This document shows positions 2,176 through 64,000 of a DNA stretch of 64,000 bases, in pieces; position 1 is the first letter of the stretch; every line of letters begins with the position of its first letter. Both the position numbers and the translations under genes were made by a program. The DNA lies in contig JBBCGN010000001.1 of assembly GCA_037200905.1 (NCBI GenBank), forward strand, positions 116,795 through 180,794. The letters are read 5' to 3'. The notes under the pieces were generated by a model, which made no database searches, was not told where the DNA came from, and saw only the letters and a program-made list of their open reading frames with translations. Source of the DNA: a bacterium. Lineage in GTDB: Bacteria; Patescibacteriota; Minisyncoccia; Phycocordibacterales; UBA9973.

Positions 2176-2184
2176 ATATCCATT

Positions 2185-3273: not shown

Positions 3274-3279
3274 TATTTT

Positions 3280-14657: not shown

Positions 14658-17215
14658 CTACTCCGCCACCTTGAACGCGGACGTCGTCTCGCCGTGATTG
14701 TACGCGCTGTCGTACGACACGATCTTTATGGTGTTCGTCGCCTGGAGATTGTCCAGTTCCGAAGGGATGAACGAGAAATAGAAGGGATAGTCGGAACTTC
14801 CGAGGTACACGTCGTTGATGTACACGTCGATCTTTTTCAGGGCGAAGGATCCCATGTTCGAGATCTTCAACTCTATCTTTTCATCGGGAGCGTACGTCTT
14901 GCCCGCGTTCGGCTCGATGATGGAAACTTTTGATTCTTCCGCGCTCGTATGTATGTCGTCGGTGGCGCCGGGCTTATCGTTCCATCCCACGATCGGATAT
15001 CGCGAAGCGTTCTGGGCCCACCAGTTCTGCACCGGAACCTCCCATAACTGGAATTGCGGATTGGTTTCCGGATGGGCCGGAGCGGGGCCGGTGATATTGT
15101 TGCGGTCGATCCAGTACAGTATCGAATGCACGTTCGTCACCACTTTTTCCTCGCGCGTTTCCGGCGGGGTGTTTTCCGTGGCGAGCTTTCCCGACACTCT
15201 GTCTATGAAGAAGTTGTCGTTGCCTTCCCAATGCCCGCGCAGTACCGGCTTGACCGCTGCCGGGTCGACGGAGAGATTCGGCGCTTCGAACTTGTCGTCG
15301 GGATATTTTTTCAAAGCTTCGGTCATGAACTTGTTCCAGATCGGCGCGGCGATGGCCGAGCCGCCGCTCTTCATCTTGGTATTGTCATTGTTTCCCGCCC
15401 ATACGCCGACAGCGATGTCGGGCGTATAGCCGATGGTCCAGGCGTCCTTGTCGTTGTTGGTGGTACCGGTCTTCACCGCTACCTGCTTGCCGGGAATTTC
15501 CAGGGCGGAATGCAGGCCGAACGTCGGCACGCGGGACACGTTGTCGGAGAGGATATCGGAAACGGTCAGGGCCGCGTTCTTGTCGAGCACCTGCTTCTGG
15601 TTCTGCTCGTATTCCTCGAGGACGTTGCCCTTCTCGTCCTCGACTTTCAGGATGCCGGTATACGGATTGCGCACGCCGCCGTCAGCCATGACGCCGTAGG
15701 CGCTCGTCATGTCGAGCGGCGTGACTTCGCCGCCTCCGATGACGAGGGTAAGGCCGTAGCGCGAAGGATCGGTCAAGGTGGAGATGCCCATCTCTGCGGC
15801 CTGATTGGCAGCGTCCTTCTGTCCGACGAGATAGAAGAGCTTCACTGCCGGCACGTTGATGGACTGGGCCAGGGCGTTCCGGAGCGACATCGGCCCGCGG
15901 AACTTGCCGTCGAAGTCCTGCGGCATGTAACAATCATTCTGATTGTGTCCGGGCAGGGCCTTGCCGTAGGCGTTGCAGTTTGTATCGAACTCCGTCGGCA
16001 GGTCGAAGAGCACCGTATCGGGCGTGAAGCCCTTCTCAAAGGCCGTGGCGTAGATGAACGGCTTGAACGAGGATCCCGGCTGCCTGTCGGCGGTGGCGAC
16101 GTTATAGTTGCCGTCGATGGCCTTGTCGAAGTAGTCCCGCGAGCCCACCATGGAAAGGATCTGGCCAGTCTTCGGATCGATGGGAGAGCGGCATTGGTGG
16201 CGTTGAAGGTCTTCTCGTTGGCGAGAGCGCCGTCCTTCACGATCTTCTCCGCGCTCTGTTCGAGGTCGTAGTCGAGCGTCGTGGTGACTTTCAGTCCGCC
16301 GTTTTCCACCATGTCGGCGCCGTATTTGTCCTCGAGATAATCCTTGATGAAGAAGACGAAGTGCGGGGCCTTGATGCCGAGCGTCGATTGCGGCTGGAAG
16401 GCTACGATCTCGGTCTTCGCGGCGCTGTACTCGTCATCCGTGATGAATCCGAGCTCGCGCTCGCGCGAGAGCACCAGGTTCTTCCTGTCCTTCGAGCTTG
16501 TCCTTGTGCTTGCCGTAGGGCGACAGGGTGGTCGGCGACTGCGGTATGGCGGCGAGATAGGCCGCTTCCGCGATGTCGAGATCGCGGGCATCCTTGGCGA
16601 AATACGTCTTGGCCGCCTCCTCGATGCCGTAGATGTTGCCGCCGTACGGATTCTCGTTCAGGTAGTATTGCAGTATCTGCTCCTTCGACAGCACTTTCTC
16701 GATCTTCACGGCGAGCACCCATTCCTTCATCTTGCGTATGACTTTCTTGAACGTGGTCGTCTCCGGGGTGAGCAAGGTATTCTTGATGAGCTGCTGGGTG
16801 ATGGTCGATCCGCCGCCGCCGATGCCGATATGGAATACGTTCGAGAGCACCGCGCGGATGGTGGAGGTGATACGCACGCCGCTATGGCTGTAGAACTGGC
16901 TGTCCTCGATGGCCACCGTGGCGTTCTTGATATTGGCGCCCATCTCGTCGAAGGTGATATTGGTGCGCTTCACGTCATTGTGGATGTCGTATAGCAGGAT
17001 CTCGCCGGTGCGGTCGTATATCTTGGTGGAACTTATGTCCTTGCGGTCCTCGAACGAGTTGAAGTCCGGGATCTTGAGCGTCGAGATCCAGATCAGCACG
17101 ATGCTCGCGAATATGATGCAGGCGCCCGCGAAGAGCGGCCAATACCTGCGCTTCAGGTATTTTTTCGAGAATTTTCGGCGAAGACGGAAAGCTTATGCAG
17201 TTTCCGCTTCGCCAT
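14658..17215 (-). CDS. Class A penicillin-binding protein (glycosyltransferase + transpeptidase), with three apparent frameshifts (16182-16184, 16489, 17172-17175)
   Basis: N-terminal TM, then GT51 motifs (ATVAIEDSQFYSHSGV, GGSTITQQLIKN). The transpeptidase part has RQPGSSFKPF (SxxK), SxN and KTGTTN. The C-terminal Ig-like extension is intact. All junctions lie at short homopolymers. Confidence 0.85.
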
Positions 17216-20001: not shown

Positions 20002-20087
20002 ATTTTTATCTTAAGAGGTTTTTAAGCAAAGAGCAAATTATTTCTTTACATATCATCATTCTATGATAGACTTTTGAAAAATTTAGT

Positions 20088-20495: not shown

Positions 20496-20526
20496 AAACG
20501 AAGGGAAAATCCTCTTCGTTTTTTAT

Positions 20527-21566: not shown

Positions 21567-21588
21567 TAATTTTATATTATGCTATACT
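21560..21588 (+). promoter_or_regulatory. Strong sigma70-type promoter (TTGACA-17-TATACT with TG extension) with no plus-strand ORF downstream
   Basis: ttgaca at 21560-21565 and tgctatact at 21580-21588. The -35 overlaps the proposed ruvB ATG on the other strand. Confidence 0.55.
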
Positions 21589-21594
21589 GTATTT

Positions 21595-21877: not shown

Positions 21878-21885
21878 AGTTTCTG

Positions 21886-23217
21886 TTACTTAAACAGCTT
21901 CTTGATTGCCTGAATGTTAGGCATGAAAATGTGTTTCCTCTTTTTAGAGACTTGAACAAGTAACCCTTTATCCACTAAGTAAACTAAGTCATTGTATGCT
22001 GTCTGGGCGTGAAATCCATGCTTCGATTGATGAATAGTGACTTCTGTGGAAGTGTAATTTTTATTATCCAAAAAATATTGCAATAAAGCAATTTGCCTCG
22101 GATTATAGTCATCAAACTTATACGCAACCAGTTTTAGGTTTTCTGCCTCTTGCATTTTCTCATTAAAATATTCTAGGAATTTATTAATTGCAGTTTTAAA
22201 AGAATCAGCTATATAAGAAATAAAATAAGTTAAGTCGTTTTCATTTTCTGAGTAAATGAAGACGTTATCATATTTTTTTCTTGAATGCACGATTGCTCTA
22301 GAAATGGCCAAATATTGAACTAACCAATAATCATGCTTTAATAAATACCAGTGAAAAACAGCTCGAGCAGTTCGGCCATTTCCGTCAACGAAAGGATGCA
22401 AATATGCTATCCAAAAGTGTAGTATTATTGCTTTGACTACAGGATGGATAAAATCACCATCTTCTTCAACTTCAGGCTTATTAGCAAATTCAATCAGCTT
22501 TTTTAATTCACTATGCATATCTTTTTCTACTGGTGGCGTATGTACAATTTCGTTCGTAACAGGGTCTTTTACAACAATCTCGTCAGCATCGGTCCTAAAT
22601 CTCCCTTGATCATGATTATCGTCAAATGTTTTATTGGTGACAATTGTTTGAATTTCAAGTAACATATCTTCGCTTAAATCCAAATTCTTCCATTCCGTTA
22701 ATTTCTGCATCATTTCGTAACTGTTCACTATCATTTGTTCATCCTTTGTCCTTGCTGGCCTTTGTGATCTGAGCAATTCCTTCGCAACCTTTCTTGATGT
22801 GTTTGCTCCTTCAATTTGACTGGTTGCAATTGCTTCTTCAGTCAATCCTGCAATAATAAATTTATTTTTCTGTGTATCAGAAAGTTTAGTTGTTTTTATA
22901 AAGCTTGCAGCATGAGTATCAATGAAATTTAATTTCTGGTAAAGAGTATTAACGACAGCAAATTCAAATAATTTTCCAGTTGTTGATTTAACTGGTGTCC
23001 TTTGAGAGAGAGAACTTCTTCGAAGTTTTAAATATGCCCAAGCTTCTTCTTTTGTGAAGCCGGCTGGTATGGTTTGATACTTAAAAGTATCCCAATAAAG
23101 GTAATTTTTCTGTGCTTTATGTAACAGCTCTTCCAGAGCGGGGGAATTGGCTGCTCTTTTTATTAAGTCATCACTTATAAGCTCTATCCAAGCTGTCGGT
23201 TTTGGTATTTTTGCCAT
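21886..23217 (-). CDS. fic: Fic/DOC-family protein (class II, N-terminal inhibitory helix) with a C-terminal winged-helix-like region
   Basis: Fic motif HPFVDGNGRTAR and inhibitory motif TSQIEG ((S/T)xxxE(G/N)). 443 aa, intact, in an AT-rich island. Confidence 0.9.
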   Translation of the reverse strand: MAKIPKPTAWIELISDDLIKRAANSPALEELLHKAQKNYLYWDTFKYQTIPAGFTKEEAWAYLKLRRSSLSQRTPVKSTTGKLFEFAVVNTLYQKLNFIDTHAASFIKTTKLSDTQKNKFIIAGLTEEAIATSQIEGANTSRKVAKELLRSQRPARTKDEQMIVNSYEMMQKLTEWKNLDLSEDMLLEIQTIVTNKTFDDNHDQGRFRTDADEIVVKDPVTNEIVHTPPVEKDMHSELKKLIEFANKPEVEEDGDFIHPVVKAIILHFWIAYLHPFVDGNGRTARAVFHWYLLKHDYWLVQYLAISRAIVHSRKKYDNVFIYSENENDLTYFISYIADSFKTAINKFLEYFNEKMQEAENLKLVAYKFDDYNPRQIALLQYFLDNKNYTSTEVTIHQSKHGFHAQTAYNDLVYLVDKGLLVQVSKKRKHIFMPNIQAIKKLFK

Positions 23218-23340
23218 ACTGTTAATTTTAACATAATTAATAGTAAAATAGCAAGTACTATTTTAAGACCAAAAAATAAGGCTATAATTACAAATTATTA
23301 ATTTTTTCTAAATTAGAAGCTAATTAACAGTAAGTAGCTT

Positions 23341-44733: not shown

Positions 44734-46667
44734 CTATTCAAGCCTCATGCCGTGTACGAGCGCATTCACCAGAACCTCTGTTTTCATGGTCGCCACGCCC
44801 ACCACCGTGTCCGCGCCGCCGTAGTAGATATACAAGACCCCTTCTTTTTCCACGACGCCGCACGGGAAAACCACATTCGGTATGAAGCCTTCCTTCTCAT
44901 ATTTTTCTTCCGGCTCGAAGATCGGTTCAGCCCCTCGTGCGAGCACTATGGCGGGATCCTTGAGATCGAGCAGGGCGGCGCCGATGCGGTACGTGTTGTT
45001 TGATTTCGATACGCCGTGGTACAGCAGCAGCCAGCCGTATTTGGTCTTGATGGGCGGACTAGCGATGCCCACTTTGGCGCTGTCCCACATATTGGCGCGC
45101 GGCCCGATGATATGGATGCATTTCTTCACGGAATCCGTGGCGAAGTCGAGGGTCTTCAGATAATCGCCGCAGACCTCGTTCGAGACGCGGTGCATGACGA
45201 AATAGCCGTGCTTGAATTTCTCGGGAAAGAGGCAGGCATCCTTGTCATCCACGTCGTTCGGCGTGATGATGAACGGCCTGGCCCAATTCCATTTCTTGGC
45301 AGCAAAATCTTTAACTGAAATCGAAGCGATGGCCACGCGCGGCGGCCCGATAGTGTCGAAGGCCGTGTAGCACATGTAGAGATTGTCGCCGATCCTGGTC
45401 AGGCGCGGATCCTCGCAGCCGGAGAACCCTCCGTCGGATTTCTTCGCCTCGAAATCCTCGCGCGGCACGTACACCGGCTCCGTCAGCCGCTCGGCGATAG
45501 TGAAGCCGTCCTCGCTCATGGCGTAGCCGATAGTCGATGTATTGTCGTTCGAAAAAGCCCGGTAGAGGATATGGATCTTCTTGTCCACCATGATAGCGGC
45601 GGGATTGAAGGTGCCCTTGGCTTCCCATGGCATGTCTCTCGGCACGATGATAGGATTTTTCTCGTAGCGCTTGAAGCGATACTCTTTTCCGAATTCGGGA
45701 TGCATGCTCATGACGAGATCGGTGAAATTCACCCGCGCCATGCAGACAGTAGTATCTGCGGCGCCATAATAGATAGTCAGGATATCCTTCTCGAGGAGCG
45801 CGCCTGTAGGAAAGATGACGTCGGACACATACCCCGAGAGCTCGTACATCTCTTGCGGTACCAGTATCGGCCCGCGAGTCCTGCCAACAATCTTCTTCGG
45901 ATCATCGAGGTCGAGCAATACCGCTTCAACGCCGAAAATCCTGTCGAGATTCCGCGGATGCGGATAGTAGTTCTGAATATGCGAATATACCAGCAGCCAG
46001 CCGTATTTGGTCTTGATGGGCGGAGCGCCGACTTCTATCTGGTCATAGTCGGCTCTTTTGAGATTTACCACGTCGTTCTCTATATTCTCCTCCCATTTTT
46101 CCCAAAATTCCGGCGACCACAGCTCTTCTATCGCATCAACTTTGACTATCACCATGCGCGTCGGGCGGCGAATCGGTATGGGCGGAAAAGATGACTACTA
46201 TCTTGCCGTTCACGCGCTCGGGAAAGAGCGCCATGGCCTTGGCATTGAACGGCGTCACGAAATGCCGCTCGTCCACCTTCTTCATGTCTTTCGATATGGC
46301 CACCGCCACCTTGATGCCTTCGGGGCCCAGCGGATATTTCGAGAGCGCGGTATAGAAGATATAATATTTGCCTTCGAAAAAAGTCACCCGCGGGTCTTCG
46401 CAGCCGAACTGGTCCCACTCCTCCTCGGGACCGATGAATATCTGCCTGTCTTTCCAGTGTATGCCGTCTTTCGATCTGGCGATGCCGATAGTCGAGATCT
46501 GATGCGGATTCCTGATAGGATCGACGGCCGAGATGGCGCGATAGAGGCCGTATATGGTAGTGCCAACCTTGACCGGAGGACATATTGAACGTAGCAAATT
46601 CTTCCCAGTAATGGTCTTTGTTCGGCAGGAGCACCGGATTCTCTTCTGTTCGTTTTACGACGTACAT
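44734..46667 (-). CDS. Tandem double GH130-family (beta-mannoside phosphorylase/glycosidase-like) protein, with two apparent frameshifts (46163-46165 and near 46583)
   Basis: Two complete repeats of the pattern NPxxxP...FNP(A/T)...GCEDPR(V/L)T...YTA...PIKTKYGWLL(V/L)YH...YYGGADT. It starts MYVVKRTEENPVLLPNK. Confidence 0.8.
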
Positions 46668-46669: not shown

Positions 46670-47819
46670 TTATATCTTTTCAAAACTGTCCTTTTTCAGC
46701 GTGATAACTCTATTTTCGGTGAGGTCCTGCAGCAGCTCTTCGATCTGTATCGAAGCCACGCAGCCGACAGTATCCGCTCCGCCGTAGTACACGAACAGCT
46801 CCTGATCCTTGATAACGGCTCCGCAGGAGTAGATGATGCCCCATTTGTTGCCTTCGTTCTCATACCGCTCGTCTGGCGCCAAGATCGCGCCCTTGCTTCG
46901 GTACAGCACTTTAGTCGGATCATTCTTGTCGAGAATAAGGGCGTACAGCTTGTAGCGCCCGGGATCACTGGGTTCGGTGACATGATAGAGTACCAGCCAC
47001 CCGAGCCGGGTTTTCATCGGGCTCGGCCCGACGCCGCGTATGCCGGTTTCTCCGACATTGCGTTCGCGGTCATGATGAGAGATGCTCTTGATGAAATCCT
47101 TGTCGCTGAATTTCTGCCAGTCGTCGACATAATCGATGAGCACTTTCGGAGAAATGCTATGCAGAACGGCAACTTGCCGTTGATCTTGTCCGGAAAAAGC
47201 GTCCAGTTCTTGTTGATCTCGCCGGGAGGAGAAATGAATATGGTTTTTTCCCATTTCCATTTCTTTCGCTCGAAATCAGCAAGCGGCATCGAAGTCAGCG
47301 CGATGCCGCACCGAACCCCAGCCATCGAAAGGCCGTATACAAGAGATACACGATATCGCCGATCCTGGTCAGGCGCGGATCCTCGCAGCCGCCGCCCCAG
47401 CCGCCGCCGGAACTGAAGAAGAGCGGCAAGGAGAAGTCAGGCCGGTCCTTGAAGCGCTTGTAGACGAAATGAGGGGCCCGCTCGCTGATATGCATGCCAT
47501 CGTCGCTCCGCGCGTAGCCGAGCGCCGAGCTGTCATCCTCGCCGATGGCGCGATAGATGATGTGTACCTTGCCTTTCGATTCGAACGCTGTCGGGTTGAA
47601 GGCGGCTTTCGATTCCCACGGATACAATCGCGGCTCGATGATCGGATTGTGCGGCGCGCGCTTGAGCTCGGCAGGCTTGCCTTTTCTCTGAAGCGCCCGC
47701 TTTGCAGTTTTCTTGATAGCTATAGCTTTCTTTGCGATTTTCTTTATTATTTTCTTCGGAGGGATCTTTTTCGCAACAGTCTTCTTCGGCTTCGCCTTCG
47801 GAGCGGTCTTCTTTGCCAA
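46670..47819 (-). CDS. GH130-family protein with a Lys-rich N-terminal tail, with three or more apparent frameshifts (near 47174, 47316-47319, 47327)
   Basis: The 50-aa tail is MAKKTAPKAKPKKTVAKKIPPKKIIKKIAKKAIAIKKTAKRALQRKGKP. Then come HNPIIEP, AFNPTAF, GGCEDPRLTRIGD, PMKTRLGWLVLYH and VYYGGADT. Confidence 0.75.
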
Positions 47820-50063: not shown

Positions 50064-51121
50064 TTACTTCCTAAAGAGCACGATGGTGCCGGGCGGTATG
50101 GCTGTGCCGTCGATCTTGTCCCCGCTCCTGATAGTCTTATCAGGAAAGCGGTAATAGGTGGAAGGCAGATCAGCATCTCCGTCGGTGATGTGGTACGCAG
50201 TGCGTTCTTTCGTCACAGTCCGCCATAGATGTAACCTACAAGGACTTTGGTTGCCGACAGGCAGAGCTTTGAGCTCGGCTTCTTTGAGCTGCGCTCCGGT
50301 GAAGATCAGGCCAGTGGCGTAGAAAATAAATCGTTGTTGACTGATTGTATTCTTCGCCGGCGATGGACCATACCCCTTTGTTCGTGATGACGCGGAAGCC
50401 TTCGAAGTCGTCGTCCGATTTGACCGTTTTCCCCTTGGACAAAGTTCTTCTTGTCCTTGGCGATCTCATCCGGAGACACCGCTTTGCGGTACAGCACGTT
50501 TGCCAGATACGAATCCGCATCTATCAGGCGGTGCGCGTTCACGTCCGGATCGGAAGAGAACGTGTTGCCGAGGCCCATGGCCGTGCGCACGTCCCTTGGT
50601 GGCAAAGAGCATGCCGCAGCGTTTCCTGCCTCTGTGACTCTTCGAATACCATTGATTCGGAGTATCGTAGGCGACCATCGAGTGCGTCACTACTTTGTCT
50701 TCCGACAAGCGATACTTGGTCCGCAGGTATGCGATGAGCGTCTTCAGCGCAGCGAGCTGCTTGGCAGTCGGCTTCTTGTCGTGATAGCCGACCACTTCGA
50801 TGCCGACGGAAGTGTTGGACAGGTTCGTGCGGTTATACCACATGCTCCGTCCGGCGTGCTTGGCTACGCGATTGTCCTTCGATGATGACCCACACCGTAC
50901 CGTCGGAACGGACGATGTAATTGCAAGTACCGTACCGATGTACGGCATGGAACGACGAATTGTCATTGCCTTCGGTAGTATGGAGGACGATGTAATTCGT
51001 CGCGGGTGCGCACATGGCGCTTGGCATTCCACTTGGAAAGCTTTGCCGGGTATTTGACCGCGGCGGCGCTCGTGAGGATAAATCCCAAAAAGATTGAAAG
51101 GAACAGGCTGACCTTCTTCAT
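50064..51121 (-). pseudogene. Amidase_2 (PGRP-like) N-acetylmuramoyl-L-alanine amidase, with at least 6 frame changes. Either a true pseudogene or a badly assembled gene
   Basis: Signal peptide MKKVSLFLSIFLGFILTSAAA. The fragments NYIVLHTTEG, CNYIVRSDGTVWVII, AKHAGRSMWYNRTNLSNTSVGIEVVGYH and LIAYLRTKYRL...VVTHSMV are spread over three frames. Confidence 0.55.
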
Positions 51122-51168
51122 ATGATTGGTTTTGATTTAGTTTAAAAATGAAGAGATATCTGTAGTAT

Positions 51169-51197
51169 ATTATATACCATTTTTACTTATTTGTCAA
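51169..51197 (-). promoter_or_regulatory. Perfect-consensus sigma70 promoter (TTGACA-17-TATAAT) upstream of the amidase gene
   Basis: On the minus strand, ttgaca lies at 51197-51192 and tataat at 51174-51169. Confidence 0.6.
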
Positions 51198-51233
51198 TAG
51201 ATATTCTGGCTTGTCATATAAGGCTTAAATAGC

Positions 51234-51259
51234 AAAAACCCCGCAAAAGCGGGGTTTTT
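51234..51259. terminator. Bidirectional terminator after the giant gene
   Basis: A5-ccccgc-aaaa-gcgggg-T5. Confidence 0.8.
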
Positions 51260-51271
51260 GTCGAGAAGCTG

Positions 51272-54200
51272 TTATGAGTGCTTCGGTGCGGCGGGATGCA
51301 CGCTGAACGGCACGAGGCTCGGAACGGTGAGGTTCAGGCTCGGGCACATGATGTTGTTCACCGCGGTCTGGGTCGTCAGGTAGAAGATGCCCGTCGGAGC
51401 GGCGATGTGCCATGGGTCGAGGATAGCGTCCTTGTGCGCGAGCTGGAAGGCCTTGAGGGCGTCTTCCGTCGGCTGGTCGAAGATGCCGCTCGTCGCGAGA
51501 GTCGTGTGCGTATAATCGTTCAAGAATTTCTGGAGCTTTGCTACCGCATCGGCGTCGTTGTCATAGCCCTTGCGCAGGAACTTGTCCACGTAGATGCCGC
51601 AGGTATTCTCTGCTCCGAGGACCGCGCCGTTCGTGGTCGAAGCGCCGAGGACTCGTCCGCCTCCCCCCGCCGCCGGAGGAGTGGCTGCCCTTGCGGGAGC
51701 TGCCGCCGGAGTGATGCTTCGCGGGCTTCGGATCCTGCACGCACTGGCCGTCCTCTTCATGCTCGTCGCTGTCGCATTCGAGCGGAGGCGTATCGTCGCC
51801 CGGCGGCGTGACTTCGTTGTCGACGCACTCGCCCTCTACTTCGTGCTGATCATCGCCGCATGTTGTCGGCTCGTCCGGAGTCTGCGGCTGTTCCGTTTCT
51901 GCGGGCAGGCATGGCAGCGCTTCGCCGAAGTTGCTTGCAGTATTGTCTTCGCAGAGTTCGGGTACAGAAGGATTCTGTTCGTTATCGCTCTGGCATGGGC
52001 CGGTCTCCTGTATGCCTGGATCGGTCTCTTCGTTCGGACATGCATCGCTTGGAGGCGTATTGTCATCGCCATTGCCGCCGTTGCCCGGAGGAATCACCTC
52101 TTCCCCGGTCGGTACGTTGAATCCGATGCAGTGGTAGGTCTCGCCCGCTGCCACTGTCGGGATGGCGTCATAGTTGTCATAGTGGACGATGTCCGTCGAG
52201 CAGTAGAATTCTGCCGAGACGCTCTGGTTGCGATTGTTGCCGGTGAACGGGATGTAGCCGTCCTGGAAGACTTCGCGCACCCAGACCAGGCTGCCGGCAG
52301 GAATCTCGGTCGTGCCGCCGAATGTCGTCCATGGCGCGCCCGCCTCCTCGGCTTCATCGCCGGGATTGGTGTAATCCTCGAGGTCCGTGCCCGGGCGCCA
52401 CTGGAATGTCCACGGCGCGAGTTCGCAGTCAGGATGAGCGGCGAGGAATGCCGTCGCGGTATTCCCGTCGATGCTCGTCACTGCGTCGCCGTTGCCCCAG
52501 TTCGGCAGGTCGCTTTCGGCCGGACAGATGATCTTCACGGCGTCGATGGTCGCGGTATCTGCCGGCTCCTCAGGCTCTTCCGGAGCGGCATCGACGCACT
52601 CGAGGGTCACGGTGACCACGAGGTCGTTGAAGTCGTTGTCGAAGCCCGCATCGCTCGTCTTCAAGTCTTCGAAGGCGAGGACATAGGTATTGCTTGCCGG
52701 ATTGTAGACCACTGCGTGATCTTGGCCGGAATTGTTGAGCGAGTTCTCCGTGGCCGCGGTCGCCTTGAAGGTATTGCCCTCGAAGGTCTTGATGGCGAAG
52801 CCGAGGGTCGTTGCCCCTTCAGGCACAGTCACATCGAACGGTCCGGCTGATGCGAGCGGCGTCGAGCCGAAGCCGGTGATAGTCGCAGTCTTGAAGACCG
52901 GCACGAAGTTCGCAGTGTCCCCGTCCACGTAGTAGCCGAAGACCTGGTTGCGTCCGGCAAAGCTGTTCACGAAGGCTGCATCAATGTGGATCTCCGAGCC
53001 CGGCGTGACGTTCCAGGTCTGGAACTGCTTCTGGTCGGTCTGTGCGTCGAGAGTGTATGGAGTGGTATCGAGGATTTCCTGCAAGTCCTGTTCCGCGCCG
53101 GGAGCCGGGTTCACCGTTTCTGCCGTGCTGTCGCCGAGAGCGCTCGGTACCGGGCAGGAGTTTACCACTTCTACCGGAGGCTGCTCGTCCTCGCACTTCT
53201 CGTTCCAGACGATGACGTACTCCGTAGCCTGCAAGTCAGTGAAGTCCGGTGCGGTCAATGCTGGTACTTTCGAAGCGGCATCTGCGAATGAGACGGTGCT
53301 CGTGGTGTAACCGACGAGAGCGAAATCGTGATCGGCGTCGCAGGTATTTCCGACTGCGCTGTTGATGACTTCGTGCGCCGCGTAATCAGCTCCTGCATCC
53401 GCATCGATGAACGATGCTTCGTATGCAGGGTCGCCGTACCAGCCGTTCGCATCGAGGGTAAACGGCACATTCGCGTATGATCCCTGCGGTACGCCGTCGT
53501 ACGTCGTGAGCATCGCAAATGATGCGTTGTTGGTATTTGCTGCTGTGGCATGCACGCCGTCGACGTATTTCGCGATGTGCACGCTGACTTTCGTCGGAGG
53601 CACTACGATCTCGCCGCACTCGTGGTTGTGAACGATGACAAATTTGTTCGCAGTAAGGTTGGTGAAGCTCGGAACGGTTGCGGTAACCGGAGCCGCTACT
53701 GCTGCCTCGTACGTGTCGCCTACCGAGTAGCCGACAAATGCGAATGGCGTGCCGGCATCGCATGTCGCGCCGACGACGCTGTCGATGTGCTCGTGGGTAG
53801 CATAGTTCGCGCCAGCGTAGAATTCGAGCGTCTGTGCCTCATACGGAGTAGGTGTCAGGCTGCCGACAGTGCTTAGTGTATACGGATCAGTGCCTGTGAG
53901 ACTGCCTGGGAACGCTTCGTTCGTGAAGCTGTAGTCAGCCTGCATGGTGAATGTCGCGCTGTCAGCGTTCTCTGCTGTCGCATGCGTGCCATCAATGAAC
54001 TTGGCGATGGTCACGTGGACGTGTGTCGGAGGTACGACGACTTCGTTGTCGATAGTTATCTTGTACGGATTTTCGGCATCGTTGCTCCAGGCACTGATAT
54101 TGCCATTGACATCCTTTGCACGGACCTGGACGTAGTAATCGCCTTCTGGCGTATTTGGAGTCGGGATGTTCGTATCGGTCAACCAGCCGCTTGAGTACGC

Positions 54201-57200
54201 GAGAGCCGTGTATGCCGCATCAGTGAAAGCTTGGTACTGGTACGTGATAGGGGCATCGCCTGTCGATGCTGACCAATCGACTTCCGTAGCCGCTGCTGTC
54301 GTAAGGACTGCGCCGTTTACAGGGCTCGTGAATGCTGGAACACTGAGAGGATTTTGTACCACTGGGGTTGTCGTCGTCTCACTTACTTCGTCTGAGATTG
54401 ATTCAGGCGAACCGTGCGATACGCCTCGGAAGAAGTACGGAGTGCCAGGAGTAAGGCCAGTAACTACGACTGTATGCGAAGTAACTTTTGTGACTGAATC
54501 GGTTTCGCTAGTTGAAGATTGGTAACCATAGTTTGGCGTACCGGCAGTATGTGCATCAATATCTGAGACTGGTGAAGTGCCGTATACCACTCGTGAAGTT
54601 GCAGGGTGGTCAGTCGTCCAAGTGACGGTGATGGTCGTATCTGTTGGCGTTGCCGCATCAGCTGAAGTAATGACTGGAGCTGGAAGGTCGCTAATAGTAA
54701 ATACTCCAGCAGTGAAGTTGATTGTGTAGTTAGTGCCAGCTGAAAGCGTACCTTGATTTATCGCATATGTATTTATTGTCTCACCTGCTACGCGAGCGAG
54801 TGCGCCAGTAAAGTTGTTGCCTGCGATAAGCGCCGGAGCAGTGTACGTCAACGCTGGGTCAATGTCGCCAACTGTTTTACTCTTGTTGTCTGCGGTGACT
54901 GATACCGTCGCTGGACTGATAACAAGTGAACCAGTTGTAGAACCAGTGTAGTTTATATCAACGATAGTTGCTTCTACTGCATATGTGCCAGCATTTGTCG
55001 GAGCAGTTGCCGAACCGTTATATGTAACTGTTGTAGTAAGGCCTGATGGAGTTGTTGTAACAGTCGCAGCATGAGTATTACCATCATATGTCGCAGTTAA
55101 ATCAGAAAGTGAGATTGTTGCAGAAGTTGTACCGACAATAACTGTGCGAATAACTTGTATTGCATGATTTCCATGAGCATCTACCGCATCGTAATTGATA
55201 TGGTATGTGCCGACTGGAGTTGTCGGAGTGACAGTGTCTCCTGTTACTGTTACTGCTACAGAGCCATCAACGAGGTCAGTTGCTGTCGCACCTTCATCAG
55301 GGTAACCGATTCCGTATGCAACATTTATATTTGCATCGCCAGCAAGTGTAATTGTCGGAGCAGTATTATCTACGATTTGGAATGTCGTTCCATTAGCACT
55401 TGTAAGATAGTTTGCTGTCGCTGTGTATGTTGCAGATGCGTTTGCTATACCAGTGTTTGTATTGTTTGTGTAATCTACTGCAACTGCTTCACTCAGACCA
55501 TTTACGCCTGTGACATTTGCTGTACATGGAGTAAGTGCAGAGCCAGTGTAGTTTGCTGTCGCCGGGCAAGAGATAATTGTATCTGTAGGTGCTTTTGCGA
55601 TCACAAGAGTGTCACCTGCAGAACCTGTGTAGTTTATATCATTGATTATTGCAACAACTGGGTAACTTCCCGCTTCGGTAGGAACCGTTGAGGAACCGTT
55701 ATAAGTGACATTCACAGTGAGTCCAAGCGGAACAGTAGAAGTCGTAACTGCTTTCGGCGTGCCGTCGTACGTCGCAGCAGTAGCGCCGATCGTTACGGTT
55801 GCTGTCGCTGAAGTGATCTGATCATGAACGGTCGAGCTTGCGTTGTTATAGTTTCCAGTGACATCGGTAAATATCCAAGCATCAGCTGGATAATCGCCTG
55901 CCGCTGTGTGGGTCGTGCCTGAAAGATCGAGGCCGGAAAGCGATTCAGCAAGTACGCCTGTTGCCGTACCTGTCGCAGTGTGAGCTGCCGTGTCATAAGC
56001 GGTATTGTAAGAATTTACGACGATAGTTGCATTAGCTTTATTTATTGTTATAGCGACATCGCCCGATTGTTCAGCGTAGTTCGGATTCGAGAATATCCAG
56101 TGCGCATTGCCTCCAGGAGCGTTCGTATATGAAGCGCCGAGAGTCAAACCTGTCAGAGTGCCTTCTACGCCAGTACATGAACCAGTTGCGCCGTGCACTG
56201 CGCCGTCATATGCATGGTTGTATCCGGTGATAGTACAGATAGCCGTACCGGAATCGATAGAATCATCGACTGTGCCATTTGTAGAGTTATAGTTTCCGTT
56301 ACCGTCAAATGTCCACGCATCGCCGTTAAATGTGCCGGCTACGGTATGCGTCGTGCCGCCGAGGTGGAGCAAGCTATCGAGGTTAGCAGGAATTGTTTCT
56401 ACGCCACTTGCAGTACCAACAGCCGTGTGAGGGTTGCCGTCATATGTGACATGGTACGCAGTGACTGAGATGTTTGCATCAGCTTTCGCAATAACGAAAT
56501 CTTGTTCGTCGACGCCGGAATAATTTGGATCAGTAATAGTTGCTACCGCATTATATGTGCCTGCATTTACCGGAGCATCCGGTGAGCCGTTGTAAGTAAT
56601 CGTGTAGTCCAAGCCCTCTGGAACTGTCGTTGCAGTTGCAGACTGGGCATTGCCATCGTACGTGTGAGTAAGATCAGAGAGCGTAATTGTCGCAGCGGCT
56701 GCCGTTATAACGCCGGTATTGTCTGCAACCAAGGTGACGTCGTAATCATCGCCGACGAATCCGTCATTTACCGTGTAATCAGTAACTGTGAGCGTCTTCG
56801 TTATACCGACGCTTGCATCCGCATATTCTTGAACGCGGCCAGTAACCGTATCCAAGCCTTGCAGGCCGTCTACAGTTGGAGTTTCATCAGAAGCGACAGT
56901 ACCGTCGTAGACTTTCGTATCAGTAACGGCAGTGATGGTCAAAGGTGCAGCGGTGATATTTGCAGTAGTTGAAGGCTGGGTCAGCGTATAGTTTACAGCG
57001 TCAGCACCAGAGAGTGTGAAGCCCAAGACAGATATTGTCTTGCCATCGCCAACATCTTTCGTATCAAATGTGCCTGCTGCAGTCCCGATGATAGTGACAT
57101 CGTCTCCATCGACTACTCCGACAAGGGCTGCGCCAGAGGTATCAAGAGTTGCATCTGTTGTAGCATCGTACGTTTTATTGCTTGCGGTTACTCCTGTGAC

Positions 57201-60200
57201 TGTCAGAGCTGTTGGCGCGATAATTTCGCCTGTCGTATCCGCTACGAATGAAACATCGTAGTTCGCTCCCCCATTTCCATCAGAAACTGTTCCCGATGCA
57301 GTAAGAGTTTTGCCGGAACCAGGATTTTTGTCATCATACGTTTCTGCAAATATTGCTGTATCGCCTGGGACAAGAGAACCTACCGTGATAGTACCGACTG
57401 CAATTGCAGAAGTGTTGCCGTCATAAGCTTTGCTGTTTGTGTTTGCAGTTACAGTGATCGATCGCATGGTGATTTCGAGGTTTGCACCAACAAATGAGAG
57501 CGTGTAGCTCGCAGGAAGTACAAGCGTACCCTGTGTGATCGCATATGAGTCTACATTTTCACCTGCAGTACGAACGAGTGAGCCAGTGAAAGCATCGCCT
57601 GTTGCAAGCGCCGGAGTAAATTGATATGTCAGAGCTGGATCATCTTCACCGTATACTTTCGTCTGTGCATCCGCGGTCACCGTGATAATCTTTGCACTGA
57701 TTGCGTCAGAAACATTGCCTGAAGCATCGTTGTAGTTACCAGTCGCATCAGTGAACGTCCACGTATCGTTGTAAGTGCTTGCGGCAGTATGTGTCGTAGT
57801 AGAGAGGTCGAGGCCAGTGAGAACTTCAGCGTTTACGCCCGTTGCAGTACCTGTAGCGGTGTGAGGATTACCATCATAGGTAACATCGTAACCATCAATA
57901 GATATGTCAGCGTCAGCCTTAGCAATGGTAATAGCGACATCGCCAGACTGTGCAGCATAGTTCGGATTAGAGAATATCCAGTGCGCAGTGCCGCCTGGAG
58001 CATTTGTATAGGAAGCGCCGAGAGAAAGTCCGGAAAGCGGGCCTTCAAATGAAGTACAGGTACCGGTCGCGCCATGTACTGCGCCGTCATAGGTGTCAGA
58101 GTATCCATCAATGTCGCAAGTCGCTGTCGCAGCGGTGATGTCTGCACTCGTAGTAGCAGTAGTGTTTGCGAGATCATAATTACCGGCATCTGCACCATCG
58201 ATAGTGATACCATCGACTGCTATTGGCTTGTCTACACCGACAGTTGCGGTATCAAATGCTGACGATGCGTAGTGAGCTACGACATCGTCTGCACCGACTG
58301 CGTCGGTAGTAAGAGTAACTGTTGCATCTGTTGTACCGTCGTATTCCTTATCGATACCTGTCGCAGAGACAGTGAGAGCTTTTTTCGTAATGTCAAAAGT
58401 TTCCGAATCAGTGCTTCCTGCATAATTCCCATTTGCTGCATAGGTCGCAGTAGCGGTAGCCGGGCCGACGATAACGTTGTCTTCGTATGTAACATTTACG
58501 GGTTCATTTAATCCGGGACCGGTGACAGTCGCAGTACAAGGCTCGATTGCTGAACCGGTGTATTCCTTTGTGTCAGGACAAGTGACAGTCGTAACCGTTT
58601 CCGCGGCTGTGATAGCGTCATCAACGGTGCCCGATGCATTGTTATAATTTCCTGTTACATCAGTAAATGTCCATGCATCATCATCGTATGTACCGGCATC
58701 AGTATGTGTAGTGCCTGTGAGTACGAGACCTGCAAGTGTTTCATCGAGTACGCCTTTTGCCGTGCTGGTCGCAGTGTGAGAGTCGCCGTCGAAAGGAACA
58801 GAGTATGCCGTCACCGTGATACTAGGATTTGCCTTGCCGATCACGTCATGCACGCTTCCTGAAGCATCGACATAATTGCCATCTTCATCATGGAAAGTCC
58901 ATGCATCTGTCGGATAATCCGCTGCGTTTGTATGAACTGTTGCAGAGACATCGACATCGGCTGAAAGATCTTCACCGTGCGCGCCAGTGGCGACGACGGT
59001 TGCAGTGTGAGCCGAGCTATCATACGTAACGCTATACGGACTGACAGTGATGTCGGCTGTAGCCGGAGTTACAGAAACTGAACCATCTACATATGTGAAT
59101 GTGTAGTTAGGATCAGCAGCACCAGAACAACTTGAAGTGTTTACAGAACCGACAACTGAAGCAGTCGTTGCTGTCGTGGAACATGTCGGAGCAGTTATAG
59201 GAATTATAGACGGCGCGTATGAAGGCGTGATTGTCGGAACAGTTCCGCCGTATACCATCGTGTCGCTCGAAGCGGTCACCACTACGGAAGCCGGAGTGAT
59301 AGTAAAGTTCGCAGTGTTATAAGTGATGTTGTAGTTCGCAAGAACGCCAGACGGAGAAAGAATTGCGGAAATCGTGTACGTGGCGACAGGTTCCCCTGCT
59401 GTTCTACTATATGTAGCAGTAACGCTGTCAGCCGGCAAGAATCCGGTGAGTGTTCCGGTAAATGCAGGATCAACTGTGCCGAAAACTTTTGTAGAAGCGT
59501 TCGGAGTTACGGAAGCTGTTTTCGTAGCGACTGTGAAAGACTGATCGACAGCTGCTGCAGCGTTGTAGTTTCCATCCCCTGCCTGCGTTGCCTCTATAGT
59601 ACAAAGACCAGCAGCTGCGATGTGAACTGTTGTGTCGGTTACAGTACAGACGCTCGGAGTAGTCGAAGCAAATGCCACGGTCAAACCAGAAGTTGCTGTT
59701 GCAGAAACTGCAAAGTCAGCATCGCCGTAAGTCTTGCCAGCCAAAGCTCCGAAAGAAATTGTTTGAGAAGTTGCTGTAACGGTAAGTTGTCCAGCATTAA
59801 ACGGTGTAAAAAAATAGTTGCTTGCAGAGAGAGTCCCTATCGTACAAGTAATTGCATATGGACTACCAGATACAGGACTTGTAGGCGTAGCAGTTGTAGA
59901 ACATGCGGGAGCGCCTGCTAGTCCAGAGGTTCCAAGATTTTGGCCGTTTACGAATCCAGAAACAGTCGCGTCGAATGCCGGATTTGCAGCGTTGTATGCT
60001 CGGCTCTTATCGTTTGCAGTTATTGCGAGAGGAGCTTTGGTTACGTTAACTGTTCTGGTTTTCTGGGTTGCAACATTACCTGCTGCATCTGTCGCATTGT
60101 AATTGATAGTGTATGCGCCGACGACAGAAGAAGGAGTAACTGTTGATCCACTTACAACTACTGCTCCCTCAGTTGTCGTTGCACCAGCATCAATATATGT

Positions 60201-61661
60201 ACTGCCATAAACAGATGAAGTTGGATTTGAACCTGTGACAGTTATGACAGGAGCAGTTGTATCAATAGTTATTGAAAGATTTCCAGAAGCAGCTGAGACG
60301 TTTCCTGCTGGGTCAGTCTGTTTGGTATTCATAGTTGCATGAATACCTTGAGACAAAGCTGAAGAAGTTATAGTGACAGTTGAAGAAGCGCAGAGGCCTG
60401 TGCCGACAGAAGTAGTGTTATCGAATAAAGTAACTGTGCTTCCTGTGACACAAGAAATTGTAAAAGTAGGAGTCGTATCAGAAGTAATATTGTCGGTAGA
60501 AGATGAACCTAAATCGGTCGCAGCTGTCATGTCCGGAGTTCCAGGAGCAGCGTCAGGTGTTACATCAGCTGTGTAAGAAACCTTTGCCTGAATCTGATCC
60601 ACACGAAACTCATCACCCGCACTGGTAGTTAAAGCAGTTAATCTTATTCTAAAGTTTGCATTTGTAAATTCAGCTGGTGACCATGTTCGTCCCCATATAT
60701 CAGATGTTCCACCGAAAATAACAGTTTTGTCTGCAGCGCCAGTGGTAAATAATGTTCCTGTATTTTTTACCGTTGTCCAATGCACACCATTATCGTATGA
60801 AAGTGAAATGTCTATAGTTCTTGGGTCTGGTCTGTTTCCTTCAAGAGCTACCTGAATACCATTAATAGTAGCTCCTGTAGGAACGCTTAAGCCAAAAGTT
60901 GTGTAATCAATAGAATCGCCTGCACTATTAAAAACTGCATACTGGTCATCAGAAGAAGCTGCATTAGTAGGGGTATCTACATTAGTATTATTTGCTGTAC
61001 CACCTTCTGCACTCCAACCACCGTCGAAGGTAGCAGTAATAGTTTTATCAGACGTAACGTTCGTAAAAGTATATGAATTTACACGTCCTTGAGATGCAGG
61101 AACAGTAACGTCAGAAACTACATATCCAGCAGATGGAACAATAGAAAGGGTTTGATTAGCACCATTAGAAACTGACGGGTTTGCAGGTGTTATCGTTCCT
61201 CCTACGCCAGGAGTAGTAGTAATTGTGTGAGGGGAAGCAACAGTGATAGCATTAGTTAATGTTAGAGTATTGCTATTTGAACTACCATTACAATCATCTG
61301 CCGAGTTCATTATGAAATATGCGTTGTATATTCCTGGTGTAGTTGGGGCTGTGATAGTAAAACTTTCAGTAGTAGAACCAGAGAAAGAGGTATTGTCATC
61401 GGTATTAGCACAAGTCGTTGAACCAGGAGCAGAATTATTAATTCTCCATTTTGTACCTTGCCAATCAGTATTAGAACTCCAACTTCCAGTTACAGCAGCT
61501 GTAATTGAGGCACCAGGTTGTACCGTTACAGTACTTAAACCGTTTAAGGTTGCTGAAGTAACAGTCGTTGCTGCCAACGCTGTTGAAGCATTAGAGAATA
61601 AAAATCCGACCACAAGGAGAACTGGTAATACAAAACGAAAAGCTGATGTAAGTTTCTTCAT
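51272..61661 (-). CDS. Giant secreted surface protein/adhesin (about 3460 aa) with a C-terminal peptidoglycan-binding domain (one frame break in the c6 run at 51663-51668)
   Basis: 3366-aa uninterrupted ORF with a signal peptide (LFSNASTALAATT). It has dozens of Ig-like and MBG-type repeats (xTVTADxKxKxYGxxDPxLTY, YDGxxHxAT), HYR/DUF5011-like modules, an FN3-like module and a DUF4114-like module (NDFNDLVVTVT). Removing one G joins it to ORF 51272..51760, which is PG_binding_1-like (AVAKLQKFLN...GIFDQPTEDALKAFQ). Confidence 0.85.
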
Positions 61662-61940
61662 AACAATAATAATTAAACTTTTAATAATTAAACTGACTTC
61701 GACTTTGTGGCTCTGCCCCTAGTGGTGGATCTGGCCTTTGTTTATTACTTTGAGCCATATAGGCTATATGACCCGACACTACCACACGCGGATATATTGT
61801 CAACATGTTTTGACACAGCAAGTTGATTCCCGCCGCCCGTCAAATTTTGCTTTTTCTCTTTCGCGCTCCGCTCCTCCCGCCCCTGTCGCGCCCTTGCTGT
61901 CTCTTCGCCTCCCTTCATCCCTCCACCATTCCTCTCTCCA

Positions 61941-61988: not shown

Positions 61989-62387
61989 ATGGCTTCCCCG
62001 AAGAAAAGATTCAGTTACAAAGGAGTCTGGGTAAACATGTTCGGTCTCAACAGCCCCAGGCCTACGGCGCAGCGCCCGGCAAGAAAGCCGGCCCAGATAA
62101 AGCGGCATTATCTCCGCTCTTTCGCCGCCACCGGCAAGCCGGATGCTCCGAGGAACTTGCTTCTCATGTACGACATCCCCCACGCCCGCAAGAAGGACCG
62201 TGACTGGTTCCGCCGCCAGCTCAAAGCTCTCGGCTTCATCATGATCCAGAAAAGCGTCTGGGTCGGCCCCGGCCCCCTGCCTAAGGATTTCCACGACTAC
62301 GTAAAAAGCATCGGCATAGAGAACGAGTTCAAGACCTTCAAGCTGGCCAAGGCCTACCCTTCCAGCACTAGCGGAGCCCGGACCTAG
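61989..62387 (+). CDS. Small Cas2-fold / PaaX-C-like protein with an Arg/Pro-rich N-terminus (orphan)
   Basis: NLLLMYDIPHARKKDRDWFRRQLKALGFIMIQKSVWVGPGP matches the beta-alpha-beta pattern of Cas2/VapD-like domains found in the PaaX-like proteins common in CPR genomes. I see no wHTH. An alternative start is at 62037. Confidence 0.6.
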   Translation: MASPKKRFSYKGVWVNMFGLNSPRPTAQRPARKPAQIKRHYLRSFAATGKPDAPRNLLLMYDIPHARKKDRDWFRRQLKALGFIMIQKSVWVGPGPLPKDFHDYVKSIGIENEFKTFKLAKAYPSSTSGART

Positions 62388-62600: not shown

Positions 62601-64000
62601 TTAGTGAGCGACTTCCGGGTTCTGGCTCCAGTTGATCAAGTCCGCAGGAATCGGGGTGATGGCTGCCGGGCAGATCAGGTTTTTCGCCTTCGCGAGGGTG
62701 GTCTTGTAGAAGATTCCCGTCGGGTTGGTGATGTGCCATGGATCGAGGATGTCAGCGCGGTACTGCAGCTGGAAAGCCTTGACCGCGGCCTCGGTCTTCG
62801 GACCGTAGACGCCGTCGACGACAAGACCGGAGTTCATCAGGCCGTTCAAGATCGCGGACTGCAAGACCTTCACCTGCTCAGGATTGTTCTTCGGGTAAGC
62901 CTTTCTCATGTAGGTGTCGATAGAGAAGTTGCATACATCCTGCGCGCCGAGGACTTCTCCTGCCGGAGGAGTGCTCGAGCTGCCGTGATGGCTTCCGCCG
63001 GAGTGGTGTGATGAGCTACCTGAAGAATCCTTCACGCAGTCTTCGCCGTCCTGGTGATAGCCGGATGGAACCGTAGACTGGTTGCCGTTGATGTTTGGAC
63101 AAACGTCTGTAGGCTGTTCAGGATTCCCCGGGGTAGAGACCGTAACGGTTGCTGAAGCAGAATCATTGCCGTCGTTCGGATCAGAAGGATCCTCTTCGCC
63201 TCCTACCGAAGTAACGGAAGCAGTGTTCGTAATCGTTGATCCTTCCGTGCCAGAGTTTACCGTCGCAACGATCGTGAGCGTAGCGCTTCCATCAATCGCA
63301 AGTGCGCCGACCGTCCATACGCCACCAACGTATGCGCCTTCGCTGTCATCTGATACAAAGGTAAGACCTGCAGGAAGAACATCGGACAAGACTACGTCTG
63401 CAGCAGCCTCAGGGCCGTGGTTCGTAGCGGTCACCGTGTATGTGACAGTCTGTCCGACATCTACCGTAGCATCGTTCACAGTCTTTGCGACTGCGATGTC
63501 TGCGCCCTCCGGATATTCGCATGAACCGTCGTCTTCGTTGGCGAATTCGTCAGGGTTCAAAGCTTCCAGATCAGTACATCCGAGGATAGTGACTGTATTG
63601 TGGAAAGTACAGGAAGTGATGCCATCGGTCGTAATTTCTACGCCGGAGACACCGTTATCTGCTGAAGTACCAGTGCTGTCCTTCTCCGACAGAACAGGTT
63701 GCACCAGTAATTCATAATCGGCATCAACAGGACCGCCGATCTCGGTAACGATGTAAGAACCGTTTTCAAGATCAATTGCCTCAGTCTTGCGGTTTCGTCT
63801 GTTGTATACGGGTTTTCAGTATCGCCATTGATAGCGAACTTCCAGCCTGCAAGCGTGCGCCTGGATTGACTTCCTTGGTAATGGTAAGAGTACCGGCACA
63901 CTGCGCAGTAGCAATGTCAGCCAAATCGGATGCCAATGTGTCGAAATCGGAATCATATGTGGTGCCGCTTGTAGAGATAGCATCCAAGTTGTCGAGATCG
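62601..64000 (-). CDS. Surface protein with a DUF11-type repeat, a prealbumin-like N-terminal part and a C-terminal peptidoglycan-binding domain. It is 5'-partial (runs off the window) with at least 2 frame breaks between about 63700 and 63860
   Basis: The DUF11-like segment is DIAVAKTVNDATVDVGQTVTYTVTATNHGPEAAADVVLSDVLPAGLTF. The C-terminus is HHSGGSHHGSSS...EVLGAQDVC...VKVLQSAILNG...GPKTEAAVKAFQ. The upstream pieces lie in ORFs 63638..63901 and 63781..63987. Confidence 0.7.

Follow-up and report, generated by a model that had tools for sequence, protein, structure and literature searches.

The longest gene in a 64,000-nucleotide stretch of Patescibacterial DNA (assembly GCA_037200905.1, contig JBBCGN010000001.1, positions 116,795–180,794; hereafter the window) raises two questions: whether it encodes a single polypeptide, and what a protein of that size would do for its cell. 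The gene occupies window positions 51272–61661 on the minus strand, in the 320-kb assembly record JBBCBH010010871.1. Taken together, the analyses below make it likely that the gene encodes an adhesin-like, wall-anchored, fibre-like surface protein of a Paceibacteria-type Patescibacterium, that the frame change within it is an assembly error and that its 5′ part is mosaic. The taxon agrees with the CPR (candidate phyla radiation)-type cell assumed in the original prediction, an earlier reading of the DNA made without database searches. The UvrB protein of the window is 76–80% identical to proteins named Patescibacteria group, Ca. Paceibacterota, Pacebacteria and Parcubacteria, which are all of its named best matches, and the best named match of the gene's C-terminal cassette is from Ca. 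Paceibacterota.

The gene is indeed very long. An open reading frame (ORF) of 3366 amino acids (aa) runs from an ATG at 61661 to 51561, and a second minus-strand ORF in another frame (51760..51272, 162 aa) holds a PG_binding_1 domain. Earlier, 51272–61661 had been taken as one frame, free of errors, encoding ~3460 aa. The interval measures 10,390 nucleotides (nt), one more than a multiple of three, and hence cannot be a single ORF. The frame switches at a run of six G residues (51663–51668; C6 on the plus strand) that contains one surplus G, a +1 frameshift through which the original prediction passed silently. Removal of one G yields a single ORF of 3462 codons; the predicted length is thus correct for the corrected protein of 3462 aa and not for the 3366-aa frame as assembled. 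Past the G6 run the assembled long frame enters an implausible tail, RRTSPRRFDHERRG..., and ends with ...GGGGRRTSPRRFDHERRGPRSREYLRHLRGQVPAQGL at a stop codon at 51561–51563. The second frame reads ...GGGGRVLGASTTNGAVLGAENTCGIYVDKFLRKGYDND... and gives the sole PG_binding_1 match of the gene (Pfam, E = 6.5e-7).

The two flanks of the junction align with homologues only once one G is removed: HHSGGSSRKGSHSSGGGGGG followed directly by RVLGA... then matches HHGSHSGGGGGFGGQVLGA... of homologue P0001. The GC content at third codon positions (GC3) of the anchor frame is 0.82, which corresponds to native codon usage. The intrinsic terminator hairpin beyond the anchor stop folds with a free energy of -21.2 kcal/mol (z = -5.9; none of 200 shuffled sequences was equally stable), although a simple consensus scan did not pick it up, and no comparable hairpin was found 3′ of the premature stop at 51561. 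Because homologues carry the anchor fused to the rest of the protein, the junction aligns and the terminator follows the anchor stop, the anchor and the 3366-aa ORF would form one polypeptide, encoded by one gene of 3462 codons. A reading of the two ORFs as a two-gene operon was rejected, since the anchor is always fused in homologues. NCBI and the sequence collection both call two ORFs. In the PGAP (Prokaryotic Genome Annotation Pipeline) annotation, the 'MBG domain-containing protein' MEJ0001766.1 (3249 aa) starts at M118 (window 61310 rather than 61661), so that the signal peptide and some of the first head domain are lost, and the anchor is called as a separate 105-aa ORF. The public annotation of the gene is wrong at both ends.

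The C-terminal anchor consists of a VLGA..C.(I)Y(V)D..LR.GY.N motif, a PG_binding_1 core (nt 51434–51550) and an extension with the pattern L.PW...PTGIFY.TT...NN.MCP..L..P; 33 columns are invariant across seven sequences. A HMMER scan of the 131-aa anchor against 1.84 billion representatives returned 3913 matches at E ≤ 1e-3, of which 1987 reached E ≤ 1e-10. The anchor lies at the extreme C-terminus (≤25 aa from the end) of 138 among the 146 best-matching representatives. Searches with the C-terminal 923 aa gave 15 homologues in which DUF4114, Cys-domain or 144-aa repeats occur together with the anchor in one protein, and the cassette and anchor recur in Paceibacterota proteins, always within one polypeptide. 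The wall-binding domain proposed earlier is thus real and belongs to the architecture of the gene, but as assembled it is out of frame, and it joins the 3366-aa ORF only after loss of one G from the G6 run. Sequence searches of the PDB with the whole protein and with the anchor gave nothing usable and no solved homologue of the anchor.

Preceding the anchor is a proximal cassette. The two tandem 144-aa repeats are ~46% identical, share the pattern VVPPT(H/K)V.V.IAK(F/Y)(I/V)DG ... C ... C and match no Pfam family; they correspond to the VVPPT... units that had been described as two β-sandwich repeats. Forty-eight fetched homologues contain this module as well, in many cases beside SdrD-B or SpaA-type domains. 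The next domain, of ~200 aa, has the pattern NSCP.P..LGD ... FGYY ... YNP..N.Y.LAFED ... D.NDLVV and bears out the suggested DUF4114-like module: the whole protein just misses the Pfam threshold (26.6 against 27 bits) and the isolated segment passes it (30.7 bits). The Cys domain that follows (TATI.A.KI(V/I)C..E.DLPNWG ... NPGD ... VW.RE ... GY(I/V)PF ... VSAE.YC ... YDN.D ... Y.C(I/V).FN) matches no Pfam family and is present in 39 of the 146 anchor-bearing representatives. An AlphaFold2 (AF2) model of the DUF4114 and Cys domains, built from a 29-sequence alignment, is all-β with a mean predicted local distance difference test (pLDDT) score of 79.8, the DUF4114 domain scoring mostly 80–96. 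Foldseek searches with this model gave weak matches only, to pilin, adhesin-B-domain, galectin and carbohydrate-binding module (CBM) 16 structures. The acidic Cys-containing spacer of the original prediction is likewise present, and similar Cys hairpins are found in P0001, in P0007 and in the neighbouring gene 63704..62601. That upstream minus-strand neighbour (window 62601–63794) encodes a DUF11 (CLIPPER) protein which, like the giant protein, ends in a Cys-hairpin, a His/Ser/Gly linker and a VLGA/PG_binding_1 anchor; its 5′ end seems to run on in another frame toward the window edge.

The greater part of the protein is a stalk of small β modules. Whole-protein self-BLAST returned the trivial match only, and the repeats were therefore mapped by chunked BLAST and self-built hidden Markov models (HMMs). 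The HMM map resolves 10 MBG_3, five MBG_2, four YDG, two MBG-like and one Ig-like module and a second Bact_surface_Ig-like module (aa 2104–2176), with about 22 MBG/YDG modules overall. MBG_3 (234.9 bits), MBG_2 (185.6) and YDG (130.6), scored against a cut-off of 25, exceed their Pfam gathering thresholds, as do Bact_surface_Ig-like (twice), Big_13 and Pur_ac_phosph_N. The last is an FN3-like module and stands without a phosphatase catalytic domain. Pfam and the HMM map therefore agree on the Ig-like/MBG-type array and on the YDG, DUF5011-like and FN3-like modules that had been recognized from the sequence alone.

The duplicated parts of the stalk are slightly more diverged than first estimated. 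The largest protein-level duplication (aa 1150–1319 and 1781–1947) is 64–70% identical, and the closest DNA repeat (56044–56210 and 57925–58091) is 80% identical over 167 nt. The ~360-nt blocks previously put at 75–80% identity exist, and their motif AHWIFSNPNYA.QSGDVAITI.KA is present twice (aa 1226 and 1853), but overall they match at 245 of 360 positions (68%); 80% is reached only in the 167-nt core. DNA self-comparison of the gene found no near-identical repeats. Collapse or mis-assembly of repeats is unlikely because the repeats have diverged (none exceeds 80% over 167 nt) and the HiFi reads are ~18 kb (mean 18.3 kb).

At the N-terminus, the expected signal peptide was recovered as the sole Kyte-Doolittle hydrophobic segment of the protein, read from the sequence, with a cleavage-type site ALA/A (AxA); it resembles that of homologue P0383. 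The head that follows has no Pfam or NCBIfam match. It comprises a β-rich domain without a family (aa 31–165), an InlB B-repeat-like unit (aa ~166–235), for which homologues have PF18998 over the middle 20%, and a lectin-like jelly-roll domain (aa ~236–366) with the motif FG(L/F)S(V/I)P.GATI.GI.V ... D.WG..W. The jelly-roll domain is shared, with invariant columns, by P0054, P0097 and P0114. In the AF2 model of the head only residues ~220–335 reach pLDDT 70–85, and these are all-β. Foldseek returned weak jelly-roll or CBM-type matches (viral jelly rolls, BcsB and CBM35; template modelling (TM) score ≤ 0.27), which are weak hints only. P0054, with two lectin-like domains and an InlB-B repeat, lies on L004, a high-GC ENA metagenome contig, and is followed there by MBG_2/YDG ORFs in other frames; this locus (L004 5909–10360) resembles another large MBG adhesin-like gene broken up by frame changes.

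Table 1. Features of the giant gene and its product in window coordinates; residues refer to the protein after removal of one G.
Feature	Position	Residues (aa)	Strand	Basis
Start codon (ATG 61661) and Sec-type signal peptide, MKKLTSAFRFVLPVLLVVGFLFSNASTALA followed by A	61572..61661	1-30	-	translation; hydrophobicity
Distal head	60564..61571	31-366	-	homologues, AF2 model
Big_13 and Bact_surface_Ig-like (former DUF5011) module 1	60042..60542	374-468 and 473-540	-	Pfam, self-built HMM map
Stalk, ~23 β modules of ~77 aa	54699..60029	545-2321	-	Pfam, self-comparison, HMM map
FN3-like module and Ig-like module	54057..54647	2339-2427 and 2440-2535	-	Pfam; weak Ig-type matches
Two tandem 144-aa repeats	53190..54044	2540-2683 and 2684-2824	-	chunked BLAST, HMM map
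DUF4114-containing domain, ~200 aa	52572..53168	2832-3030	-	Pfam, homologues, AF2
Cys domain	52095..52556	3036-3189	-	homologues, AF2 model
Acidic Pro-rich spacer, Cys hairpins C-x-x-(D/E)-x-H-x5-7-C-V	51729..52094	3190-3311	-	translation
His/Ser/Gly linker with frame change (HHSGGSSRKGSHSSGGGGGG)	51656..51728	3312-3335	-	translation, frames, homologue alignment across junction
C-terminal wall anchor (stop codon 51272-51274)	51275..51655	3336-3462 (corrected)	-	Pfam, alignment, HMMER
Intrinsic terminator hairpin AAAAACCCCGC-UUUU-GCGGGGUUUUU	51233..51260		-	12 nt past anchor stop codon
Low-GC3 block, ~7.5 kb (AT-rich leader, signal peptide, head, stalk, FN3)	54250..61720		-	GC3, codon choice

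The modules suggest how the protein may work. The signal peptide would direct Sec export, and the C-terminal PG_binding_1-type module would tie the protein, without a covalent bond, to the peptidoglycan of its own cell. The two 144-aa repeats, the DUF4114 domain, the Cys domain and the acidic disulfide-hairpin spacer would make up the base. From it, a stalk of ~25 small β modules (MBG, YDG, Ig-like and FN3), ~100 nm long as estimated from the module count, may hold the N-terminal head, with its lectin-like jelly-roll, toward a ligand on another cell or surface. No enzymatic family was found in Pfam or NCBIfam scans of the protein, as the predicted adhesin-type content implied. An enzymatic role was rejected on this ground, the purple-acid-phosphatase match being to the FN3-like N-domain of that enzyme only.

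The gene is not uniform in codon usage. GC3 is 0.20–0.44 through aa 1–2400 (0.22 for aa 1–636) and 0.61–0.74 beyond, as compared with 0.66–0.86 for the housekeeping genes of the window. The best single change point, at aa 2471 (nt ~54,248), falls in the Ig-like module at aa 2440–2535 and separates a GC3 of 0.34 from one of 0.71 with a log-likelihood gain of 178. In each of the six four-fold families tested, the two parts prefer different synonymous codons (p = 3e-4 to 5e-12), and in four of the six the 3′ part shows no significant difference from the housekeeping genes. Native-type sequence lies on both flanks of the low-GC3 block. The gene is thus probably a recombinant mosaic, judged from its codons, in which the 5′ ~71% has foreign usage and the base and anchor are the genome's own, the 5′ part of a resident gene having likely been replaced. 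Since MBG/YDG modules and the same anchor already co-occur in the lineage, exchange by recombination with a homologue from a relative of lower GC is probably the most economical reading. A more specific version is tentative and somewhat doubtful: a recent inter-lineage event in which a 7.5-kb cassette from a lower-GC relative took the place of the 5′ part and brought with it the leader, signal peptide, ligand-binding head and MBG/YDG stalk, while the resident kept its lineage-specific base and anchor. Elsewhere in the window, a second low-GC island (20000–24000, GC 0.42–0.46) carries a Fic-domain gene (23217..21886, minus strand) with a GC3 of 0.29 against ~0.7 for the genome; this gene was probably acquired horizontally.

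The frame change has to be seen against the state of the contig, which derives from a PacBio HiFi hifiasm-meta co-assembly of four deadwood metagenome samples with a mean read length of 18.3 kb (PMC11613949). Other genes of the same contig, essential ones among them, are also frame-broken. The dnaA gene (11709–13052, plus strand) consists of three ORFs in different frames, corresponding to DnaA_N, Bac_DnaA and Bac_DnaA_C, with breaks near 12,147 and 12,675; one break resembles an extra A (AAGTAACAACCCG, expected AAGTACAACCCG) and the other a missing T (GCAGCTTGAATACC, expected GCAGCTTTGAATACC). The yidC gene (60KD_IMP; 10187–10816, minus strand) lies in three fragments of 106+, 57 and 58 aa. 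In the class-A penicillin-binding protein (PBP) gene (14658–17135, minus strand) the transglycosylase (ORF 17099..16434) and the transpeptidase (16151..14658) are in different frames, the change lying near 16,2xx at NATNAAL/IDPKTGQILSMVGSRDYF. A GH130 paralogue (46670–47819, minus strand) shows two shifts within ~25 nt (GDIVYLLYTAF, then DGWGSVR, then CGIALTSMPLADF), and the Amidase_2 gene (N-acetylmuramoyl-L-alanine amidase; 50150–51130, minus strand), which has a signal peptide of its own, at least three frame changes. Given these genes, the contig is taken to carry roughly one indel per 5 kb. An intact GH130 gene (46155..44734) adjoins the split paralogue.

Independent copies or close relatives of the locus did not turn up. 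GTDB genomes gave two distant MBG matches only, JGI metagenomes and viral contigs gave none, and exact look-ups of the split ORFs returned the same NCBI contig only. A Logan contig of one HiFi run has the dnaN of the organism, without the regions of interest.

Because essential genes of the contig are also broken by frame changes, the one break within the 10.4 kb of the giant gene is, with good confidence, put down to the HiFi metagenome assembly having inserted one base too many. If it were instead genuine, the allele would be recently inactivated or anchor-less, its 3366-aa product being secreted free or non-functional, or slippage in the G tract could act as a phase-variable switch that couples and uncouples fibre and wall. 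G6 is what the assembly contains and two ORFs are what NCBI and the collection call; the break falls exactly in a homopolymer between functional modules, and the frame breaks of the contig are uneven, so that not all need be errors. Yet a real lesion is hard to reconcile with broken dnaA, yidC and class-A PBP genes on the same contig, with a downstream frame that is perfectly conserved and uses native codons, and with homologues that show mixed Gly codons and intact fusions. Homopolymer tracts of known contingency loci are usually 8 nt or more, a length that the tract here, G6 only, does not reach. A genuine frameshift is accordingly regarded as quite unlikely. The codon jump could similarly be an artefact, in which two organisms of different GC were joined: the switch from 0.34 to 0.71 is sharp and lies inside an ORF, and the contig comes from a four-sample co-assembly. 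However, native-type sequence on both sides of the block favours 5′ replacement over such a chimera, which would require two in-frame mis-joins. The ORF and the domain order are also unbroken across the switch, the mean HiFi read (18.3 kb) is longer than the block, and P0383 and other proteins have the same plan of similar signal peptide, MBG modules, 144-aa repeats and anchor. A chimera is therefore highly improbable, and replacement of the 5′ part within a resident gene is retained.

The ligand is a further point of divergence. In host-attached Paceibacteria, genes for extracellular proteins with a PGBD (peptidoglycan-binding domain) rank with the most strongly expressed ones (PMC10936435), and Saccharibacteria require adhesins to grow as epibionts (PMC10633639). 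Together these findings make a host-attachment role plausible for the giant protein. The same surface fibre could instead bind wood or fungal polysaccharides or biofilm matrix, or serve self-aggregation. The source was decaying wood, for which Patescibacterial glycan-degrading activity is reported (PMC11613949), and the window encodes GH130 mannoside phosphorylases; the one part of the head modelled with moderate confidence, the jelly-roll, weakly matches structures of the CBM35/BcsB-CBD type, and the DUF4114 domain weakly matches galectin and CBM16. These structural matches are nevertheless weak (TM ≤ 0.27) and stem partly from a low-confidence model, no CBM family matched by sequence, and all cultivated Patescibacteria are episymbionts needing adhesins (PMC10633639). 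A non-host ligand is thus the less likely reading but a serious alternative, and attachment to a host is plausible. Several observations weigh against the interpretation as a whole. The head could be assigned to no family, and AF2 modelled it poorly (mean pLDDT 51, from a four-sequence alignment). As assembled, the anchor lies in another frame, and its PG_binding_1 match spans only positions 3–41 of the 57 of the profile. The frame breaks of the contig are clustered rather than uniform (three to four in the 0.9-kb amidase and one in the 10.4-kb giant gene), and some may for that reason be real pseudogenes. No donor of the low-GC3 block was found in GTDB genomes, JGI metagenomes or viral contigs, and P0054, the nearest homologue of the head, comes from a high-GC contig.

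The giant gene is followed downstream by the Amidase_2 gene, preceded by a perfect TTGACA-17-TATAAT (sigma-70-type) promoter match at 51197..51169, and by a gene for a CAP-domain protein. Between the giant and DUF11 genes, on the opposite strand, lies a small ORF (61989–62387, plus strand) with a PaaX_M/Cas2-like domain (E = 1.7e-15). The window also encodes a VirB4-like conjugal-transfer/type IV secretion ATPase of the CD1110 family (3280–5136, plus strand; E = 6e-112); type IV secretion is reported to be essential in epibiotic Saccharibacteria (PMC10633639).

For CPR/Patescibacteria other than a few cultivated Saccharibacteria, attachment is the key stage of life still to be explained. The giant gene provides a specific candidate: an unusually large fibre, laid out plainly as base, stalk and head, from a Paceibacteria-type organism of soil or wood. 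Three of its recurrent, unannotated modules could become families: the ~125-aa wall anchor (~2000 cluster representatives at E ≤ 1e-10), the Cys domain and the 144-aa repeat. The sharp codon-usage mosaic suggests modular exchange of the recognition end. If the inter-lineage version of this exchange were true, naturally competent Patescibacteria would swap the recognition ends of attachment fibres as modules, like phage tail-fibre tips, which would offer a route to altered host or substrate range. The many frame errors on the contig mean that its gene-level conclusions need read-level checking.

Among known proteins, the closest in plan are Patescibacterial proteins with a C-terminal PGBD anchor (P0001, a 'peptidoglycan-binding protein' of Ca. 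Paceibacterota; P0002–P0016; P0383). They share the C-terminal cassette of DUF4114 domain, Cys domain, acidic Cys hairpins, Gly linker and VLGA..CG.Y anchor at 45–62% identity; for the proximal cassette, identity to homologues is 36–62%. By sequence the giant protein would belong to this family once its frame is restored. P0383 (1163 aa) combines a very similar signal peptide, MBG modules, 144-aa repeats and anchor, as in the giant protein. Also comparable are the PGBD proteins that Ca. Yanofskyibacteriaceae/Minisyncoccaceae express at high levels (PMC10936435). The giant protein differs in size, its 3462 aa being about twice the longest of the 146 best anchor-bearing representatives (median 737, maximum 1917 aa), and in its ~1800-aa MBG/YDG stalk, such modules occurring in only six of the 146. 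Its gene also differs from those of the PGBD-anchored homologues in the foreign 5′ codon usage and in being frame-broken in the assembly.

By its modules the giant protein belongs to the MBG/YDG kind of surface protein (PF18676, PF18887 and PF18657), with multiple copies above gathering scores and an export signal. The 'fibrillar adhesin-like' MBG/YDG proteins are likewise arrays of ~70–85-aa MBG and YDG modules mixed with Ig-like ones. MBG relatives extend to unrelated phyla, with segments 47–63% identical on Aestuariivirga and Acidobacteria contigs and also on L004. Many diderm MBG/YDG proteins are attached by autotransporter or other outer-membrane systems. The giant protein has a PG_binding_1-type anchor and no β-barrel, LPXTG or RTX (repeats-in-toxin) element; autotransporter anchoring was rejected for lack of a β-barrel. 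A literature search on the function of MBG/YDG domains found no relevant experimental work.

The overall design recalls giant adhesins such as MpIBP of Marinomonas (PMC5550230) and SiiE of Salmonella (PMC6272769), which follow the same logic of a proximal anchor, a stalk of β modules as extender and distal ligand-binding domains. The 7651-aa Ig-repeat adhesin of Mobiluncus (PMC10619420) and Giant1–5 of Apilactobacillus (PMC12863079) share this logic. Those adhesins use type I secretion (T1SS)/RTX or sortase/LPXTG systems, whereas the giant protein has a Sec signal peptide and a predicted non-covalent PG-binding module, other repeat families and its distal end at the N-terminus. A sortase-anchored adhesin (MSCRAMM, microbial surface component recognizing adhesive matrix molecules, type) or pilin was rejected, as the C-terminal region has neither an LPXTG-like motif nor a hydrophobic segment; the proximal domains show weak fold resemblance only to pilin or SdrD-B modules. 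A T1SS/RTX adhesin of the LapA, SiiE or MpIBP type was rejected as well: HemolysinCabind has no match, a Sec-type signal peptide is present, and the RTX-type GG.G.D pattern occurs once, as a chance match. The stalk-and-tip design is thus a known one, to which the giant protein adds a different anchor and different repeat families.

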